Below are positions 45,274-50,142 of a stretch of 64,000 bases of DNA, piece by piece (position 1 is the stretch's first letter; the number at the start of each line of letters is the position of its first letter). The DNA comes from Ostreococcus lucimarinus (Eukaryota), in the NCBI GenBank assembly GCA_000092065.1, contig CP000593.1; one strand, 5' to 3'. A program made the translations under genes and the position numbers. The notes beneath the pieces are model-generated. The model searched no databases and was not told where the DNA came from. It saw nothing but the letters and a program-made list of their open reading frames with translations.

Positions 45274-46533
45274 TCACATCTCCTCGTCCGTGGCTTCTTC
45301 AGAGTTCGACCCGGCGTCCGAGTTATCGGACAAGGGGAACTCCATGACACAAGATGGAGTCTGAGGGCGCATAGTGGCCTCCTTGGCGTCTGTAAACGAG
45401 AAGGCGTGCGCGGTCGACATAGACGCACCGCACAAGTTCGGAACGCTGATGGTGGATCGCAGACGATCGTTGCGTTCATACGTGTAATACGCAACGACAC
45501 CTTCCACGTCAAACTCTTGGCGAGTAGCTTGCGCGCGAGAGTATCCCGGCACAAATGCACCGTTGGCGAGCACTTCAGTGGCGACCTCAGCGGCGTTCAA
45601 ACCGTCGATGGAGATGGCGAACACCATCTTCCCGGGCTTGAACACGGAGGCGACCTTACGAACGTACGCGAAGGCATCGAGGTCTTGCACTTCCACGTTG
45701 GACAGCTCGCACGAGGCGTACGAGAATCCATCTTCGGGAGTGATGTGAATAGTGCTGAACTGGCCATCTAAAGAGCCTTTCTCGTGCAAGCCATTCATCG
45801 AATACCCGCACGGTTCGAAGACGTAGTCGTCGATGTCAAATTCCTCAAAAATCGATCGAATACCGCTGTCTGTGGTGGTTTGGGCCGAGCTCACAAAGGT
45901 TTCTTCTTTGCGATAGAAGTGTTCTTCGCAATGCGCGCGATTGAGATGCGTCATGCACACTTCGAGAGAAGCCTTCGGTCTGGCGTCTTGCAACGGGCAC
46001 GCGTCGCCAGAGACATACACGTGCCATTGCACACCCTTGAGTTTACTCCCCAAGATGTAAGACGACCCACCAGCCGCCGACAAGTTACCGAAGTGTTTCT
46101 CCAAAAACGCAGTCTCGTCATCGAACGAGGCGTGCAATTCGGGTTGCAAGTCAGGCTTGTCAAACGACGAGCGCGTAAACTTGACGCGTCGCGGTTCCAT
46201 GCCAACCTCGGCGGCGTACTTCAAGATGTTCGGCACACCCGCGAGAAGATGCGTGGTGCCACACGTCTTCAACACCAACTTGGTGGGAAAGACGAAGAGC
46301 GATGACTCCGACAAGACGTAGGCGTCAAATTTGTCATTCGAGCGAACGCTGACGATTTCACACCGCGCCGCCGTCATGCACTCATCGAGCTGCGCCCGCG
46401 CAATCTCCCTCAAGCCGCGCGGGTTCCTCTCGTTGAAGTGAAAGTCAATTTCAATGCGCTTCTCCGCGCCCTCAAAGTGCGGCGACGGGTAAATCCCGTC
46501 CACCGTCGTCACGGAAGCCGTCGCAGCAACCAT
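45274..46533 (-). CDS. SAMDC: S-adenosylmethionine decarboxylase proenzyme
   Basis: Landmarks FEGAEKRIEIDF, VLSESSLFVFPTKLVLKTCGTT, processing-site region, FSTIHITPEDGFSYASCE. ATG at 46533. Confidence 0.9.
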   Translation of the reverse strand: MVAATASVTTVDGIYPSPHFEGAEKRIEIDFHFNERNPRGLREIARAQLDECMTAARCEIVSVRSNDKFDAYVLSESSLFVFPTKLVLKTCGTTHLLAGVPNILKYAAEVGMEPRRVKFTRSSFDKPDLQPELHASFDDETAFLEKHFGNLSAAGGSSYILGSKLKGVQWHVYVSGDACPLQDARPKASLEVCMTHLNRAHCEEHFYRKEETFVSSAQTTTDSGIRSIFEEFDIDDYVFEPCGYSMNGLHEKGSLDGQFSTIHITPEDGFSYASCELSNVEVQDLDAFAYVRKVASVFKPGKMVFAISIDGLNAAEVATEVLANGAFVPGYSRAQATRQEFDVEGVVAYYTYERNDRLRSTISVPNLCGASMSTAHAFSFTDAKEATMRPQTPSCVMEFPLSDNSDAGSNSEEATDEEM

Positions 46534-46647
46534 GATACTATACCTCGTCGATACGAAATCTACGTATCCACGTTTCCCAACGTCAAATCAATTCTTCTAG
46601 TTGCGTTTTCCTCACGAGCACGCTACTCTTTAATCGATTTCACCGTG

Positions 46648-46803
46648 TCAGGAAGGTGATCTCGTCAAGTCCTGATACGCGCTGCTCGCGTACTTTTCGC
46701 ACCCCCACGGTCGCAAATCGGCGATGAAGCTCGATTCCGTTACCTTGTTCTGTTCCTCTTCGTCCCGTATATTATCGCTACTACCGTCCTCGGAGTCCAT
46801 CAT
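46648..46803 (-). promoter_or_regulatory. conserved peptide uORF in SAMDC 5' leader (51 codons, MMDSEDGSSDNIRDEEEQNKVTESSFIADLRPWGCEKYASSAYQDLTRSPS*)
   Basis: Starts with a tandem ATG ATG and stops 114 nt upstream of the SAMDC ATG. Its C-terminal half matches the plant SAMDC small-uORF peptide pattern (S-I-x-D-x-R-P-x-G ... S-A-x-Y ... R/S-P-S-stop). Confidence 0.7.
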
Positions 46804-47472
46804 CTTCGTCGTCGATTCGCGGCCTTCGCCTTTTTTCGTGTTTTCGAGCTTCTCGCCCTTTTATTCCCTCACCCGAGAGAGCGTACGAGTTTGACTCCTT
46901 CGCCGCGCCTAAACTTTACTGTTGACCGTCCCTCGTTCACGCCGATCGACCTCTCGCCGTTCGACGCGCGCGCGTTATCCGTCGCGACGCTCGCGGCCGA
47001 CAATAATCAAACTTTATCACCGAACGCGCGCGTGCTCGCCCGTCCTTCGTCCCGCGCGCTGACCGCAACGCGTTTTACGATCGATTAATCTTTCGATCGG
47101 CGCCGCGATGAAAACGCGTGCGCGAGCTTTTATTCGCCTCGTGCGTCGCGCGCGAGGTGCGTCGCGCTGGAACGAGCGTGCGTTCGGGCGCGAGGATTTT
47201 GTTTCGCGACGTGCGTCGGCCGTGCGGGTGCGCGGGCGCGTGTGCGTCGAGTGGTGGCGCGCGATGCGACGCGGCGGCGACGCGACGTCGACGCGGTTCG
47301 GCGATCGGGTATCCGATTAGGGCTTTCGAGACCACAGGCGAGGCAGAGGCGACGGCGAAGGAGAGATCGAGGGCGCGACGCGCGCGCGATGACGGGTGAA
47401 AAGAGAACGTAAGTGATGTCGTGGTATTAAGAATGAGATCTAAGCGTGGATGAGGCGTGAAAACGAATCGTG

Positions 47473-47497
47473 CGAACGAACGAACGAACGAACGAAG
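47473..47497. repeat. (CGAAC)5 pentanucleotide repeat in EFL 3' UTR
   Basis: cgaacgaacgaacgaacgaacgaag, 55-80 nt downstream of the EFL stop (47552-47554). Confidence 0.8.
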
Positions 47498-47551
47498 GCG
47501 CGCGACGTCGCGCCGAGTGGACGACGAGCCGGCGACGAGCGATTTCGTCGC

Positions 47552-48955
47552 TTAGATGGCCTTGTACTCAACCTTGGTGATCTTACCCAACATGACGGCG
47601 GTGTTACCGTCCAAGAAAGCGATGCGGGAAAGACCTTCGCACTTCTTGAAGGAGTCGACGACGAGCGGGTGGACCGGCTCGAAGACGCACTCGGCGACTT
47701 CGTTGGACTTCAACGACATCGGGGACTCGAGCTTCTTACCGCCGGTTTCCTTGCCAACCTTGAAGTTGAGCGCGGTCAACTTGCACGCGGAGCGGCCGCA
47801 TCGGACGAAACCGATGGGGCTGTAGCCCGCCTTGAGTTCACCCGGAATGTCCAAGGTTTGGATTTGCGCGGTGAACTCCTTGCACGGGGCGAGGGAGGTG
47901 TCCTTCTTGTAGATCATCACGTCACCGGTGCGCGGCATGTTGAGCTTGTCGAGACCCTTGATGTTCATACCGACGTTGTCACCCGGCGCGGCGGCTTCGA
48001 CGCGCTTGTGGTGCATTTCGACGGTGAACACCTTACCACCGCACGGGTTGGAGGAGGTGTGGGTCGGGAGGAAGACGACGTCTTCACCCGGCTTGACGAG
48101 ACCTTGCTCGACGCGACCGGCGAGGACATCACCGACACCCTTGATCTTGTAGACACCGGAAATCGGAAGGCGCATGGCGGCTTCCGTGTTGCGGTCCGGC
48201 TTGTCGACCATGTCGTTGAGGACGTTGAGGAGGCAGTCGATGTGGAACTTCTTGCCGCCGCCCATGTAGTCTTCGACGTCGACGCCGTTCCACCACGGCA
48301 TCTTCGCGGACTTGGACAACAAGTTGTCGCCGTTCCAGCCAGAGATCGGGAGGACCGGGACGCTCTTCTCGACGTAATCCTTCTTCCAGCCGACCTTGAT
48401 CAACATGTTCTTCATTTCGTTGCGAATTTCTTCGTAACGCTCTTGCTTGTAGCCAGCCATGTCGCAATCCATCTTGTTGATGCCGCAAATGAGCTGCTTG
48501 ACGCCGAGCAAGTTGAGAAGACGCGCGTGCTGGCGCGTTTGGCCTTGGACTTCACCAGCCTTGTGGTTACCCTTTTGGATGGCGACCGTGAAGTTACCGT
48601 CCGCCGGCACCATGAGAAGCGCCACATCGGCTTGCGCCGCGCCGGAAATCATGTTCTTGATGAAATCGCGGTGACCCGGGGCGTCGATGATGGTGTAGTG
48701 CCACTTGTCCGTGAAGAATTCCTTGGTCGTGCAAGAAATCGTCACACCACGCTCACGCTCTTCCTTTTGGCGATCCATGTAGAACGCGAACGCGAAAGAA
48801 GACTTACCGAGCGCATCGGCTTCGGCGCGAAGCTTTTCGAGTTCGCGCTCCGGGATACCCCCGAGCTCGAATAACAAGCGACCGGTCGTCGTCGACTTAC
48901 CGGAATCGACGTGACCGCAGATCACGATGGAAAGATGTTCCTTGCCTTCAGACAT
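47552..48955 (-). CDS. EFL: EF-1alpha-like translation elongation GTPase (EFL)
   Basis: MSEGKEHLSIVICGHVDSGKSTTTG... G1-G4 GTPase motifs (GHVDSGKST, DAPGH, NKMD). Shows EFL-type rather than EF-1alpha-type sequence along its length. ATG at 48955. Confidence 0.9.
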   Translation of the reverse strand: MSEGKEHLSIVICGHVDSGKSTTTGRLLFELGGIPERELEKLRAEADALGKSSFAFAFYMDRQKEERERGVTISCTTKEFFTDKWHYTIIDAPGHRDFIKNMISGAAQADVALLMVPADGNFTVAIQKGNHKAGEVQGQTRQHARLLNLLGVKQLICGINKMDCDMAGYKQERYEEIRNEMKNMLIKVGWKKDYVEKSVPVLPISGWNGDNLLSKSAKMPWWNGVDVEDYMGGGKKFHIDCLLNVLNDMVDKPDRNTEAAMRLPISGVYKIKGVGDVLAGRVEQGLVKPGEDVVFLPTHTSSNPCGGKVFTVEMHHKRVEAAAPGDNVGMNIKGLDKLNMPRTGDVMIYKKDTSLAPCKEFTAQIQTLDIPGELKAGYSPIGFVRCGRSACKLTALNFKVGKETGGKKLESPMSLKSNEVAECVFEPVHPLVVDSFKKCEGLSRIAFLDGNTAVMLGKITKVEYKAI

Positions 48956-48960
48956 TTCTA

Positions 48961-48974
48961 TCGTTCGTTCGTTC
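48961..48974. repeat. (CGTTC)n repeat, reverse complement of the 3' UTR repeat, 6-20 nt upstream of the EFL ATG
   Basis: Plus strand cgttcgttcgttcg; on the EFL mRNA strand this reads CGAACGAACGAACG immediately before AUG. Confidence 0.7.
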
Positions 48975-49542
48975 GCGCGCGCGTTTCAACGTCAGTCTCC
49001 GCGTCTCGGTCGTCGTCGCGTCCCGGCGGTGTTATCCACAAACCCGAAAGATGGTCTCCGGGACGGCGCGGTCAAACGACCGTCCCGTTGACGCGTCGCG
49101 CGCGTCTCCGTCCCTCCCGCGCGCGACGGCGCCGCGATGTATTCTTCGCCGTCGTTTGCGCGTCACCGCGTCGTCGTCGCGCGCGCGCGCGCGACGACGA
49201 CGCGCGAATGCGTCGAGGCGGCGCGAACCCGCGCGGCGCGGCGGCGCGCATCGCGCGGGCTCGACGCGCGCGCGCGCGACGCGACCACGGCGGGGGGGCG
49301 CGGATGGGCGGGAGATATTTTAAGCGATCGTTTCGACGCGCGAGGCGTACCGATGGAGTCGTGTGTGTGCGCGAGAGTGACGATAACGTCGACGACCAGA
49401 GGCGGATTACTCGCGCCGTGGCGAAAATGGCTTTACACTGAAATAGCATACAACAGCTGCGCGGAGAGGGCGCGACGGACCGCGGACCAGGGAGGGCGCG
49501 ACGCGAGTCGGAATCGGTCGATCGGGATCACCGCGATCGCCA

Positions 49543-50142
49543 TCACTTTTCGACGTATCCAAAGTACGCGTACGCCGCGGTGAAGACGGCCCAGACCGGG
49601 GCGTCCCAGGCGCCGACGCCGAATGCAGTCGCGACCAAGTACAGCATCGGGAAGACGTTCAACGCGCAAAATTTCTTCACCTGCGAGGCGCCGCCGCGAA
49701 CGGCGGTGATCTTACCGGCGAACCAACCGAGCTGAGCGGTGATGATCCAAGCCTTGAAGATGGGCCAATTCGATGCGGTCATGCCGGCGTTGACGAGCGT
49801 CGGCATGATTTTCGCGAAGAGCTCGTAATTCGTCGCCGCGACGATGGTGTACGCGAGCACGGTGAACGCGCTCAGCGCCAAGAACTGCACGCTCAGCGCG
49901 GCATCTTTGAGTTTCGTGATGTACATCACCGTCGGTCGGCGCGAGACGGCGTGGGCGATGACGGACCGTCGCGGCGCCGGCGCTGACGAGGACGCCGCGA
50001 GCGCGATCGTGGCGCGCGCGCCCTTGACGGCGCGCGGTTCGCGCGTGACGCGCACCAGACGCGCTCGAGACTTTGACTCGATGCTCGCGAGCGAGCGCGA
50101 TAAGGCAGGGCGCGCGTGCGTGTTGATCGTACCGGCGAGCAT
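49543..50142 (-). CDS. hypothetical multi-pass membrane protein with transit-peptide-like N-terminus
   Basis: ATG at 50142. About 70-residue Ala/Arg/Ser-rich leader, then 3-4 hydrophobic helices (LSVQFLALSAFTVLAYTIVAA; VFPMLYLVATAFGVGAW). Confidence 0.5.
   Translation of the reverse strand: MLAGTINTHARPALSRSLASIESKSRARLVRVTREPRAVKGARATIALAASSSAPAPRRSVIAHAVSRRPTVMYITKLKDAALSVQFLALSAFTVLAYTIVAATNYELFAKIMPTLVNAGMTASNWPIFKAWIITAQLGWFAGKITAVRGGASQVKKFCALNVFPMLYLVATAFGVGAWDAPVWAVFTAAYAYFGYVEK

Follow-up and report, generated by a model that had tools for sequence, protein, structure and literature searches.

Direct base pairing between the two ends of one RNA is known from the 5'CS/3'CS elements of flaviviruses, from the duplex between the 5' and 3' UTRs of p53 mRNA, and from the kissing of plant-virus 3' CITEs with 5' UTRs. 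These elements show conservation or covariation, and mutation followed by compensation has established that they are required. One of the two genes for the elongation factor-like GTPase EFL in Ostreococcus lucimarinus (copy A) resembles such cyclization elements in that a complement of at least 10 nt lies near each end, overlapping the start-codon region, and the ends are joined in prediction, but its pairing is lineage-specific, polymorphic, built of low-complexity repeats, and lacking in the paralogue and orthologues. Like the terminal inverted repeats of DNA transposons and MITEs, the short inverted repeats of EFL-A bracket a discrete segment; unlike them, the arms are microsatellites, no target-site duplication accompanies them, the corresponding site in a sister species has no 5' arm, and EFL copy B is armless. 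Duplicated elongation-factor genes are known to evolve in concert, as bacterial tufA/tufB and yeast TEF1/TEF2 do, and the EFL copies likewise combine identical coding sequences with unrelated flanks; this parallel explains why the copies differ in their UTRs only, not why the repeats are there. Microsatellites that arise by slippage in UTRs, set in the CpG-rich repeat landscape of O. lucimarinus (PMC3152781), share with the EFL-A tracts their perfect 4-nt units, copy-number differences, non-coding flanks and CpG motif class, whereas the EFL-A tracts are peculiar in that both UTRs of one gene carry the same class, oppositely oriented. We propose, as the probable explanation, that the UTRs of EFL copy A carry two independent AACG-class slippage microsatellites whose pairing is unselected.

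The gene lies in a 64-kb stretch of O. lucimarinus DNA (hereafter, the window), in which genes were called with a self-trained codon model. Pfam finds GTP_EFTU together with the D2 and D3 domains on the called EFL gene, and the encoded protein matches exactly ABO99278.1, ABO99358.1, ABP01268.1 and XP_001420985.1 of O. lucimarinus CCE9901. A spurious antisense ORF of 474 aa at this position is longer than the EFL ORF itself. The EFL literature in PMC1891102 and PMC3938643 contains nothing on copy number or UTRs of EFL in Ostreococcus. The features discussed below are collected in Table 1.

Table 1. Features at EFL copy A, in window coordinates.
Feature	Position	Strand	Description
EFL (elongation factor-like / eEF1A-type GTPase) CDS, copy A	47552..48955	-	467-aa ORF
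3' tract	47473..47496	-	plus (CGAA)6, mRNA (UUCG)6; 56-79 nt past stop
5' tract	48961..48975	-	plus TCGT x3.75, mRNA CGAACGAACGAACGA; ends 6 nt before ATG
3' arm, perfect 16-nt inverted repeat	47472..47487	.	plus GCGAACGAACGAACGA
5' arm, perfect 16-nt inverted repeat	48961..48976	.	plus TCGTTCGTTCGTTCGC
Polymorphic site in 5' tract	48963..48963	-	mRNA C to U, giving CGAACGAACGAAUGAUAGAAAUG
Putative 3' UTR, 148 nt	47404..47551	-	probable poly(A) site near 47404
Putative 5' leader, 36 nt	48956..48991	-	possible transcription start 48991
Conserved upstream element	48982..48997	-	GACTGACGTTGAAACG (mRNA sense); candidate core promoter/start region

An earlier note on this DNA had described complementary pentanucleotide repeats at the two ends of the EFL mRNA. 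Tandem repeats that are mutually reverse complementary do stand on either side of the gene, but the unit is not a pentanucleotide: the period is 4 in both tracts, and position 47497, a g, lies outside any fifth 'cgaac'. The 14-mer cgttcgttcgttcg is present, at 48962-48975, one base away from where it had been placed, and the complementarity of '14 or more nt' is a real perfect match with an exact length of 16 nt. The inverted repeat continues imperfectly beyond this core, with 81% identity over 32 nt (47465-47496 and 48956-48987). Both tracts are microsatellites, comprising at least three perfect head-to-tail copies of a unit within the 1-6-nt range, and the copy number of the 3' tract varies between strains and species. 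The 3' tract is also the longest perfect tetranucleotide repeat of the window. The Micromonas origin that the earlier note implied is rejected as well, given the exact match of the EFL protein to O. lucimarinus CCE9901.

Both tracts probably lie within the EFL-A mRNA. A metagenome scan yielded six contigs, one with a poly(A)-like junction and one with a suggestive 5' end. The former, a chimeric environmental contig (L035, Ga0228686_1001332), follows the window sequence between 48943 and 47404 and then, past 47404, runs on with an untemplated 'AAAAAAAAAAATAAAAAAAA' and with unrelated AT-rich sequence. With a poly(A) site near 47404, as read from this single contig, the 3' tract would fall within the 3' UTR; the local GC minimum of 0.46 is at 47400-47499. 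The contig with the suggestive 5' end (L031, Ga0228671_1003330) begins exactly at 48991, the final base of a conserved GACTGAC, which is possibly the EFL-A transcription start but may also be an assembly break. From this contig start and the conserved upstream element we infer that the 5' tract, which is placed between that element and the ATG, is transcribed. Variant proteins P0123, P0126, P0130 and P0133, when looked up, belonged to metagenome contigs or chimeras, with no transcripts among them. The core ACTGAC of the upstream element is found 41-54 nt before the ATG in both O. lucimarinus copies, the sister species and two further EFL loci (L029 and L036), and 77 nt before it in Bathycoccus; the fuller form ACTGAC(G/T)TTGAAA is shared by copy A and Bathycoccus. 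As a general promoter word, GACTGAC was rejected, as its nine matches in the window against eight expected show no enrichment.

The earlier note had suggested that the transcript ends could base-pair, and folding predictions agree that this is physically possible. In a 1588-nt model mRNA folded with ViennaRNA, the whole leader pairs with 3' UTR positions 1500-1536 at a probability of about 0.998, so that long-range pairing is favoured in silico over local alternatives. The 16-bp RNA duplex has a free energy of -27.3 kcal/mol, and relative to separate folds of the two UTRs their co-fold gains -23.9 kcal/mol. Shuffled 3' UTRs pair less well than the EFL-A 3' UTR (z = -2.8), none of 200 shuffles being as strong. 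In the model fold, leader GUUGAAACG can also pair with CGUUUUCAC directly 3' of the 3' tract. A search of Rfam over 46500-49600 on both strands gave no match at E <= 1.

Whether the complementarity exceeds chance depends on the measure. By length of perfect match, EFL stands out: its 16 nt are the longest among the window's 33 cognate 5'/3' flank pairs and exceed all 1056 non-cognate pairs when flanks of 40/150 nt are compared, and with 100/200-nt flanks 0.4% of the non-cognate pairs attain 16 nt. By duplex free energy with bulges allowed, its flanks (-43.0 kcal/mol) rank tenth of the 33 cognate pairs, and 30% of the non-cognate pairs in the window are as strong. The repeats themselves are similarly two-sided. 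Eight perfect tetranucleotide repeats of at least 12 nt occur in the window, and the two that belong to the AACG class both flank EFL, against an expectation of 0.18 AACG runs of this length in third-order Markov simulations. At a threshold of at least 10 nt, the AACG class accounts for 5 of 24 tetranucleotide runs in the window and is among the three commonest classes. Other AACG-class runs of at least 12 nt in Ostreococcus loci are TTCGTTCGTTCG (L006, 6430-6441) and (ACGA)4 (L011, 2644-2659), and the flanks of EFL copy A hold four of the five such runs in ~85 kb of Ostreococcus sequence; recurrence of the class was judged from the window and these ~85 kb. O. lucimarinus is an outlier in that CG, ACG and CCG repeats dominate, and 285 tetranucleotide loci, given without a motif breakdown, have been counted in its 13.2-Mb genome (PMC3152781); the supplements of that study contain no AACG motif counts. 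From repeat densities we roughly estimate that two repeats of one class in the two UTRs of one gene would arise at ~5e-4 per window, or in ~0.1 genes per genome. Strand composition differs between the two sides of EFL, the purine fraction outside the tracts being 0.60 on the 5' side and 0.37 on the 3' side, and the 3' flanks of the window's genes are generally pyrimidine-rich on the sense strand (mean purine fraction 0.455, p = 0.001).

Natural haplotypes show that the pairing is polymorphic. Among the environmental contigs, 20 carry six copies of the 3' tract unit and two carry 3.5, and the length of the 5' tract is fixed. Within the 5' tract, the C-to-U change at 48963 leaves a perfect complement of 13 nt instead of 16 and introduces an upstream AUG in frame with EFL (MIEM-EFL); the U allele is carried by ten contigs (L009, L021-L028 and L033) and proteins P0001 and P0123. 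The 5' C and T alleles each occur with both the 6-copy and the 3.5-copy 3' allele. Haplotypes with the short 3' tract reach a duplex z of only -0.5 to -0.8, and no compensatory changes were seen among the haplotypes.

The paralogue, copy B, lies 222 kb away from copy A. The coding sequences of the copies are identical (1404/1404 nt), their UTRs are unrelated, and identity does not continue past the start and stop codons, which lie between the arms of the inverted repeat. The UTRs of copy B contain no tracts, and the duplex between them does not surpass that of shuffled sequence (z = +0.9). Copy B is set between Mito_carr and peptidase M24 genes, an arrangement that Bathycoccus shares and that is apparently ancestral. 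In a sister Ostreococcus species, the syntenic EFL has the gene order RbcX ... EFL ... SAM decarboxylase ... RNB. The 5' tract was not found in its leader, which aligns across the gap (CGTTGAAcCG-TAGAAAATG in the sister species, CGTTGAAACG[CGCGCGCGAACGAACGAA]CGATAGAAATG in O. lucimarinus). The 3' tract has a counterpart there of 3.5-4.5 copies, 83-100 nt past the stop, and a further ~15 nt of 3' UTR sequence (ACGATTCGTTTTC) occur only in O. lucimarinus when the two species are compared by eye. The sister species has an inverted pair of its own, with (ACGA)4 ~350 nt upstream and (TCGT)3.5 downstream. An alignment aimed at matching this (ACGA)4 to the O. lucimarinus 5' tract failed, regions beyond the proximal leader being essentially unalignable; the (ACGA)4 may instead correspond to a degenerate CGAACGACGGCGAAG ~190 nt upstream in O. 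lucimarinus.

Further afield, the 5' tract was not found at the L029, L036, Bathycoccus or Micromonas-like EFL loci. The longest complement is just 6-8 nt at L036, in Bathycoccus and at two Micromonas-like loci, and comparable complementarity occurs in none of the third Ostreococcus species, Bathycoccus and the Micromonas-like genome. The earlier note had proposed comparing EFL flanks among relatives; across the Ostreococcus, Bathycoccus and Micromonas-like loci checked, the pairing is present in none besides copy A, and it is neither conserved nor covarying across the orthologues and the paralogue. Since the pairing is absent from paralogue and orthologues and weakened in haplotypes without compensation, the idea that the ends could pair stands as a physical possibility with no sign of selection.

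A function for the pair of tracts, in which the EFL-A mRNA would close on itself through a leader/3' UTR helix (16 bp perfect, ~36 nt in total, about -24 kcal/mol), appears unlikely. Translation or stability of copy A would then differ from that of copy B, for example with the mRNA repressed or stored until helicases, temperature or growth state released it, and repeat number would tune copy A. Such a role would fit the model fold, the co-folding gain and the excess over shuffles, as well as a perfect match longer than in every non-cognate pair and a 3' arm within the UTR defined by the putative poly(A) site; moreover, copies A and B differ in their UTRs only, so any regulatory difference must lie there. 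It is opposed by the lack of conservation or covariation, given that the sister leader, copy B, L036, Bathycoccus and the Micromonas-like loci are all without the feature, by the erosion of the pairing in natural haplotypes, and by the frequency of similar duplex energies in this GC-rich genome. A strong cap-proximal helix abutting the AUG is expected to inhibit cap-dependent initiation, and such a helix over the leader should hinder the translation of a very highly expressed mRNA. Also quite unlikely is the more particular proposal that a recent, microsatellite-built UTR duplex gates copy A alone, with repeat length and the common C-to-U allele tuning expression; that allele would both weaken the helix and add the in-frame upstream AUG. 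An origin of both tracts in one DNA-level event, a short inverted duplication, arising through template switching or fold-back repair, in which part of the repeat region was copied from the 3' UTR to the leader or in the opposite direction, would have taken place in the O. lucimarinus lineage and would need no RNA function. The imperfect extension of the inverted repeat past the microsatellite, the pairable leader GUUGAAACG and CGUUUUCAC beside the 3' tract, and the restriction of both the 5' insertion and the ~15-nt segment to O. lucimarinus speak for such an event. We nonetheless consider it very unlikely: identity beyond the repeat amounts to a few bases around a 6-7-nt mismatch, which chance could produce where sequence is CG-rich; GTTGAAACG, an ancient element of the leader that Bathycoccus shares, did not originate as a copy of the 3' UTR; the additional 3' segment resembles a local tandem duplication; and upstream regions align too poorly for the events to be reconstructed.

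The two remaining readings concern the gene's arrival and its 3' end. The suggestion in the earlier note that the inverted repeats are terminal repeats or another trace of the event that inserted EFL is to be rejected and has next to no chance of being right. Its appeal is geometric, as the inverted repeat tightly brackets the CDS, but EFL occupies the same syntenic site in the sister species, where the 5' arm is lacking and the leader can be aligned across the gap; the arm thus formed in situ, at a locus where the gene was already present. Copy B, in its seemingly ancestral context, has no such repeats, no target-site duplication is visible by eye outside the arms, and identity between the copies extends only from start to stop codon and does not reach the arms. 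The 3' tract might alternatively be kept as part of a U-rich, pyrimidine-rich 3'-end processing element before the poly(A) site, the 5' tract being incidental, which on sequence grounds we find most improbable. A T/C-rich stretch ending in (TCGT)n does lie 3' of EFL-A in both Ostreococcus species, the tract is 70-93 nt upstream of the putative cleavage site in O. lucimarinus, and the EFL-A 3' UTR contains no UGUAA, a signal found in only about 30% of O. lucimarinus genes (PMC6413133). Yet copy number varies from 3.5 to 6, copy B has no tract, and in the sister species a TGTAA 40 nt past the stop is upstream of the tract, which may therefore lie past the end of that mRNA.

We therefore return to two independent slippage microsatellites, for which we infer both the slippage origin and the lack of function. 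The anatomy of the tracts, their confinement to one lineage, their polymorphism, their absence from copy B and the pairing in silico are shown directly. Replication slippage would have produced both tracts in a genome where short repeats containing CpG are unusually frequent. The 3' tract would be the older, given its shorter counterpart in the sister species, and its growth to six copies would have taken place in the main O. lucimarinus lineage; the 5' tract would be new in O. lucimarinus only, as a (CG)n(CGAA)3 expansion within the conserved leader, between GTTGAAACG and TAGAAATG. Orientation would follow local strand composition, with CGAA in the purine-rich leader and UUCG in the pyrimidine-rich 3' UTR, and tracts oriented by local skew would come out as reverse complements without selection for pairing. 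The end-to-end 16-bp helix is possible on paper, and scanning ribosomes and helicases would open it. Several observations count against the slippage account: 20 of 22 contigs, drawn from many samples, share the same six-copy allele; two repeats of one class in one gene's UTRs are hard to obtain by random placement; the 16-nt match is longer than in all 1056 non-cognate pairs, complementarity continues weakly outside the repeats, and the full-length fold joins the ends with high probability; and the AACG runs cluster around EFL copy A, with the sister species also carrying an inverted pair.

The present evidence is mainly a caution. GC-rich, repeat-rich genomes such as those of Ostreococcus readily give strong predicted pairing between transcript ends, and predicted end-to-end pairing should not be taken for function without conservation. 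If the pairing were functional, EFL-A would offer one of the rare cases in which direct pairing of the 5' and 3' ends closes a cellular mRNA, a very young case built from microsatellites, and the paralogue, with an identical coding sequence and without the pairing, would make it a natural experiment. Two by-products of the analysis are more solid: the concerted evolution of the EFL duplicates, which is strictly limited to the coding sequence, and the conserved upstream element ACTGAC, followed in its fuller form by TTGAAA.

The EFL gene of the window (copy A) is flanked by two short, mutually complementary repeats that we consider probably to be two independent slippage microsatellites, their complementarity being a by-product. 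The encoded protein is identical to O. lucimarinus CCE9901 ABO99278.1, ABO99358.1, ABP01268.1 and XP_001420985.1, which places the window in Ostreococcus and not in Micromonas. The feature as a whole is real and correctly placed, but the earlier note mis-described it: repeats are present on both sides of EFL, with a unit of four bases, (CGAA)6 and TCGT x3.75, rather than five, and the coordinates of the upstream tract were off by one base. Perfect complementarity between the tracts spans 16 nt (47472-47487 versus 48961-48976), and the imperfect inverted repeat around EFL reaches up to 32 nt (81%). Rfam returned no match for the tract region. An antisense ORF that exceeds EFL in length is spurious, arising from the high GC content, and misled a longest-ORF call.

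Features of the EFL copy A locus and its neighbourhood (positions in the window)
Feature	Position	Strand	Description
SAM decarboxylase	45274-46533	-	
uORF, 51 aa	46648-46803	-	upstream of SAM decarboxylase; MMDSEDGSS...IADLRPWGCEKYASSAYQDLTRSPS
Spurious ORF, 474 aa	47450-48874	+	antisense to EFL
3' tract	47473-47496		plus strand (CGAA)6, mRNA (UUCG)6; 56-79 nt past stop
EFL, eEF1A-like elongation factor, 467 aa	47552-48955	-	ORF
5' tract	48961-48975		plus strand TCGT x3.75, mRNA CGAACGAACGAACGA; 3' end 6 nt before ATG
5' tract polymorphic site	48963		plus-strand g to a; variants L009, L021-L028, L033
Candidate start-site/core-promoter element ACTGAC	48982-48997	-	also in L006, L011, L029, L036, L037
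Perfect palindrome, 38 nt	49167-49204		arms CGCGTCGTCGTCGCGCGCG and CGCGCGCGACGACGACGCG, 19 nt each, no spacer

The proposal that the transcript ends are able to pair holds in silico. In a folded model mRNA (48991 to 47404, 1588 nt), essentially the entire leader was paired with 3' UTR positions 1500-1536, each 5' tract base pairing with the 3' tract at P ~0.998. The 16-bp helix by itself was computed at -27.3 kcal/mol, co-folding the two UTRs gained -23.9 kcal/mol over folding them apart, and the duplex scored z = -2.8 against dinucleotide-shuffled 3' UTRs. Transcript ends were sought in a metagenome scan that yielded six contigs. One of these, L035 (Ga0228686_1001332), tracks EFL through its coding sequence and 3' flank to 47404, then reads AAAAAAAAAAATAAAAAAAA, where the genome reads CTTTTCACCC, and passes into unrelated AT-rich sequence. 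On the simplest reading, L035 is a polyadenylated copy A transcript joined by the assembler through its tail, which would imply a 148-nt 3' UTR with the entire (UUCG)6 tract; the regional GC minimum at 47400-47499 fits a 3' end there. UGUAA, which occurs in only ~30% of O. lucimarinus genes (PMC6413133), is absent from the inferred 3' UTR, and we think it improbable that the 3' tract acts in 3'-end processing. Contig L031 has its first base exactly at 48991, where a conserved GACTGAC ends; this suggests a 36-nt leader including the 5' tract, or possibly an assembly break instead. Presence of the 3' arm in the transcript is thus supported by one contig (L035), and that of the 5' arm we infer.

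Whether the complementarity exceeds chance depends on the measure. By length of perfect match, the 16 nt of EFL was the longest among 33 cognate 5'/3' flank pairs from 35 genes defined with a self-trained codon model; none of 1056 non-cognate pairs matched it with 40/150-nt flanks, and 0.4% reached 16 nt with 100/200-nt flanks. On the RNAduplex energy scale, EFL, at -43.0 kcal/mol, ranked only 10th of the 33 cognate pairs and was equalled by 30% of non-cognate pairs. Only eight perfect tetranucleotide runs of at least 12 nt occur in the 64 kb, (CGAA)6 being the longest; two belong to the AACG class, for which third-order Markov simulations predicted 0.18, and both flank EFL. With 5 of the window's 24 tetranucleotide runs of at least 10 nt, AACG is one of its three most frequent classes, AACG runs were found again at other Ostreococcus loci, and CG-, ACG- and CCG-type low-complexity sequence is abundant in flanks of the O. 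lucimarinus genome. This species is an extreme outlier in which CpG-containing repeats dominate, with 285 tetranucleotide loci genome-wide (PMC3152781). The EFL tracts are another instance of UTR microsatellites, a kind already known. Assuming uniform placement, we estimate from small samples that a same-class repeat pair around one gene has a chance of ~5e-4 for the window, or ~0.1 genes per genome. The examined Ostreococcus sequence (~85 kb) contains five AACG runs of at least 12 nt, of which four flank EFL copy A, and the locus seems to have a propensity of its own, through sequence context, transcription-associated slippage or small inverted duplication.

A sister Ostreococcus species carries EFL at the syntenic position (RbcX ... 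EFL ... SAM decarboxylase ... RNB). Its leader (...GCGTTGAACCGTAGAAAATG) aligns to that of O. lucimarinus on either side of the (CG)4(CGAA)3 block, indicating that the 5' tract expanded in place and only in O. lucimarinus. The sister 3' flank contains (TCGT)3.5-4.5, 83-100 nt past the stop, which makes the 3' tract the older one and shows that its length varies. Because TGTAA lies 40 nt past the stop in the sister species, the 3' tract may sit beyond the mRNA end there. A sense-oriented (ACGA)3-4 repeat ~350 nt before its EFL-A (L011 2644-2659, L014 2648-2659) forms with the downstream repeat an inverted AACG-class pair around EFL in that species too, its upstream member probably being outside the mRNA and far from the leader. 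No tracts were found in a third Ostreococcus species (L029, L036), Bathycoccus (L037) or a Micromonas-like genome (L038, L039), and where both flanks were present (L036-L039) the longest 5'/3' complements were only 6-8 nt. Within O. lucimarinus, two alleles of the 5' tract are common, C (8 contigs) and T (10 contigs). The latter shortens the perfect match to 13 nt and introduces an in-frame upstream AUG (MIEM...), which adds three residues (MIE-) to the N-terminus of EFL and shows up as the 470-aa gene calls P0001 and P0123. The 3' tract comprises 6 units in 20 contigs and 3.5 units in two. All four combinations of these alleles occur, short-tract haplotypes give a duplex z of only -0.5 to -0.8, and no compensating change between the tracts was found among the variants.

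It is on this comparative evidence that the reading of the modelled pairing as a functional 5'-3' helix of copy A alone fails: copy B (the second EFL gene), the sister leader and the more distant genomes share no such pairing, variation within the species is uncompensated, and we consider the helix unlikely to be functional. That both arms share an inverted-duplication origin appears quite improbable. The other suggestion of the earlier note, that the inverted microsatellite is a footprint of EFL insertion, we reject as scarcely credible, since the syntenic sister species indicates that EFL occupied the site before the 5' arm arose, copy B has no arms, no target-site duplication is visible, and homology between copies A and B does not reach past the start and stop codons and ends inside the arms. 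Local strand composition would account for the orientation of the tracts. With the tracts removed, the sense-strand purine fraction of copy A is 0.60 in the leader and 0.37 in the 3' UTR, and the sense strand of 3' flanks across the window genes is significantly rich in pyrimidines (mean purine 0.455, p = 0.001). If an AACG-class repeat expands in a leader rich in purines, it would read CGAA, and in a 3' UTR rich in pyrimidines UUCG, so that inverted orientation would be expected without selection for pairing.

Upstream of EFL, ACTGAC lies 41-54 nt before the start codon in both O. lucimarinus copies, the sister species, L029 and L036, and 77 nt before it in Bathycoccus. The fuller ACTGAC(G/T)TTGAAA is found in copy A and Bathycoccus, and L031 begins at the final C of its ACTGAC; GACTGAC showed no enrichment across the window. 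A 10-mer upstream of copy A stands in opposite orientation in O. lucimarinus (TGGATAACAC, ~49035-49044) and L011 (GTGTTATCCA, ~2865-2875) and may be an orientation-independent promoter motif. The palindrome lies ~210-250 nt before the ATG, within sequence reaching 85% GC that separates EFL from an upstream 199-aa gene, and its central CG run differs in length among environmental contigs. Beyond EFL, the uORF resembles a plant-type regulatory uORF of SAM decarboxylase in a prasinophyte; its match to Pfam PF08132 (AdoMetDC leader peptide) is weak (E = 0.038, 14.3 bits, cutoff 25) and spans the conserved C-terminal half.

Copy B is on the same contig as copy A, at a distance of ~222 kb and in another gene context (asparaginase, mitochondrial carrier, EFL, peptidase M24, Mlh1). 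In two independent assemblies the two coding sequences agree at every one of their 1404 nt (window 47552-48955 versus L006/L007 3001-4404), and the UTRs are unrelated starting with the base that adjoins the ATG and the one that follows the TAA. The copy B UTRs contain no tracts, and their 5'/3' duplex is no better than shuffled (z = +0.9). Many public metagenome contigs (L002, L020, L022, L023, L025, L026, L035, L042, L045 and L047) are chimeric and link one copy's 5' flank with the other copy's 3' flank, or EFL with foreign sequence, with junctions through identical coding sequence or an A-run; EFL gene neighbourhoods in such assemblies are thus unreliable. Both genomic contexts are also present in the sister species, whose EFL is 97% identical to that of O. 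lucimarinus (85 nt differences, 63 at third codon positions), and in a Micromonas-like genome two EFL copies that differ at 20 nt likewise share a contig. The EFL copies appear to undergo concerted evolution (gene conversion) limited to the coding sequence. Bathycoccus EFL (L037, Bathycoccus prasinos OZ117069.1) has the same neighbours as copy B (mitochondrial carrier ... EFL ... peptidase M24), pointing to copy B as the ancestral Mamiellales locus and to copy A as a derived duplicate.
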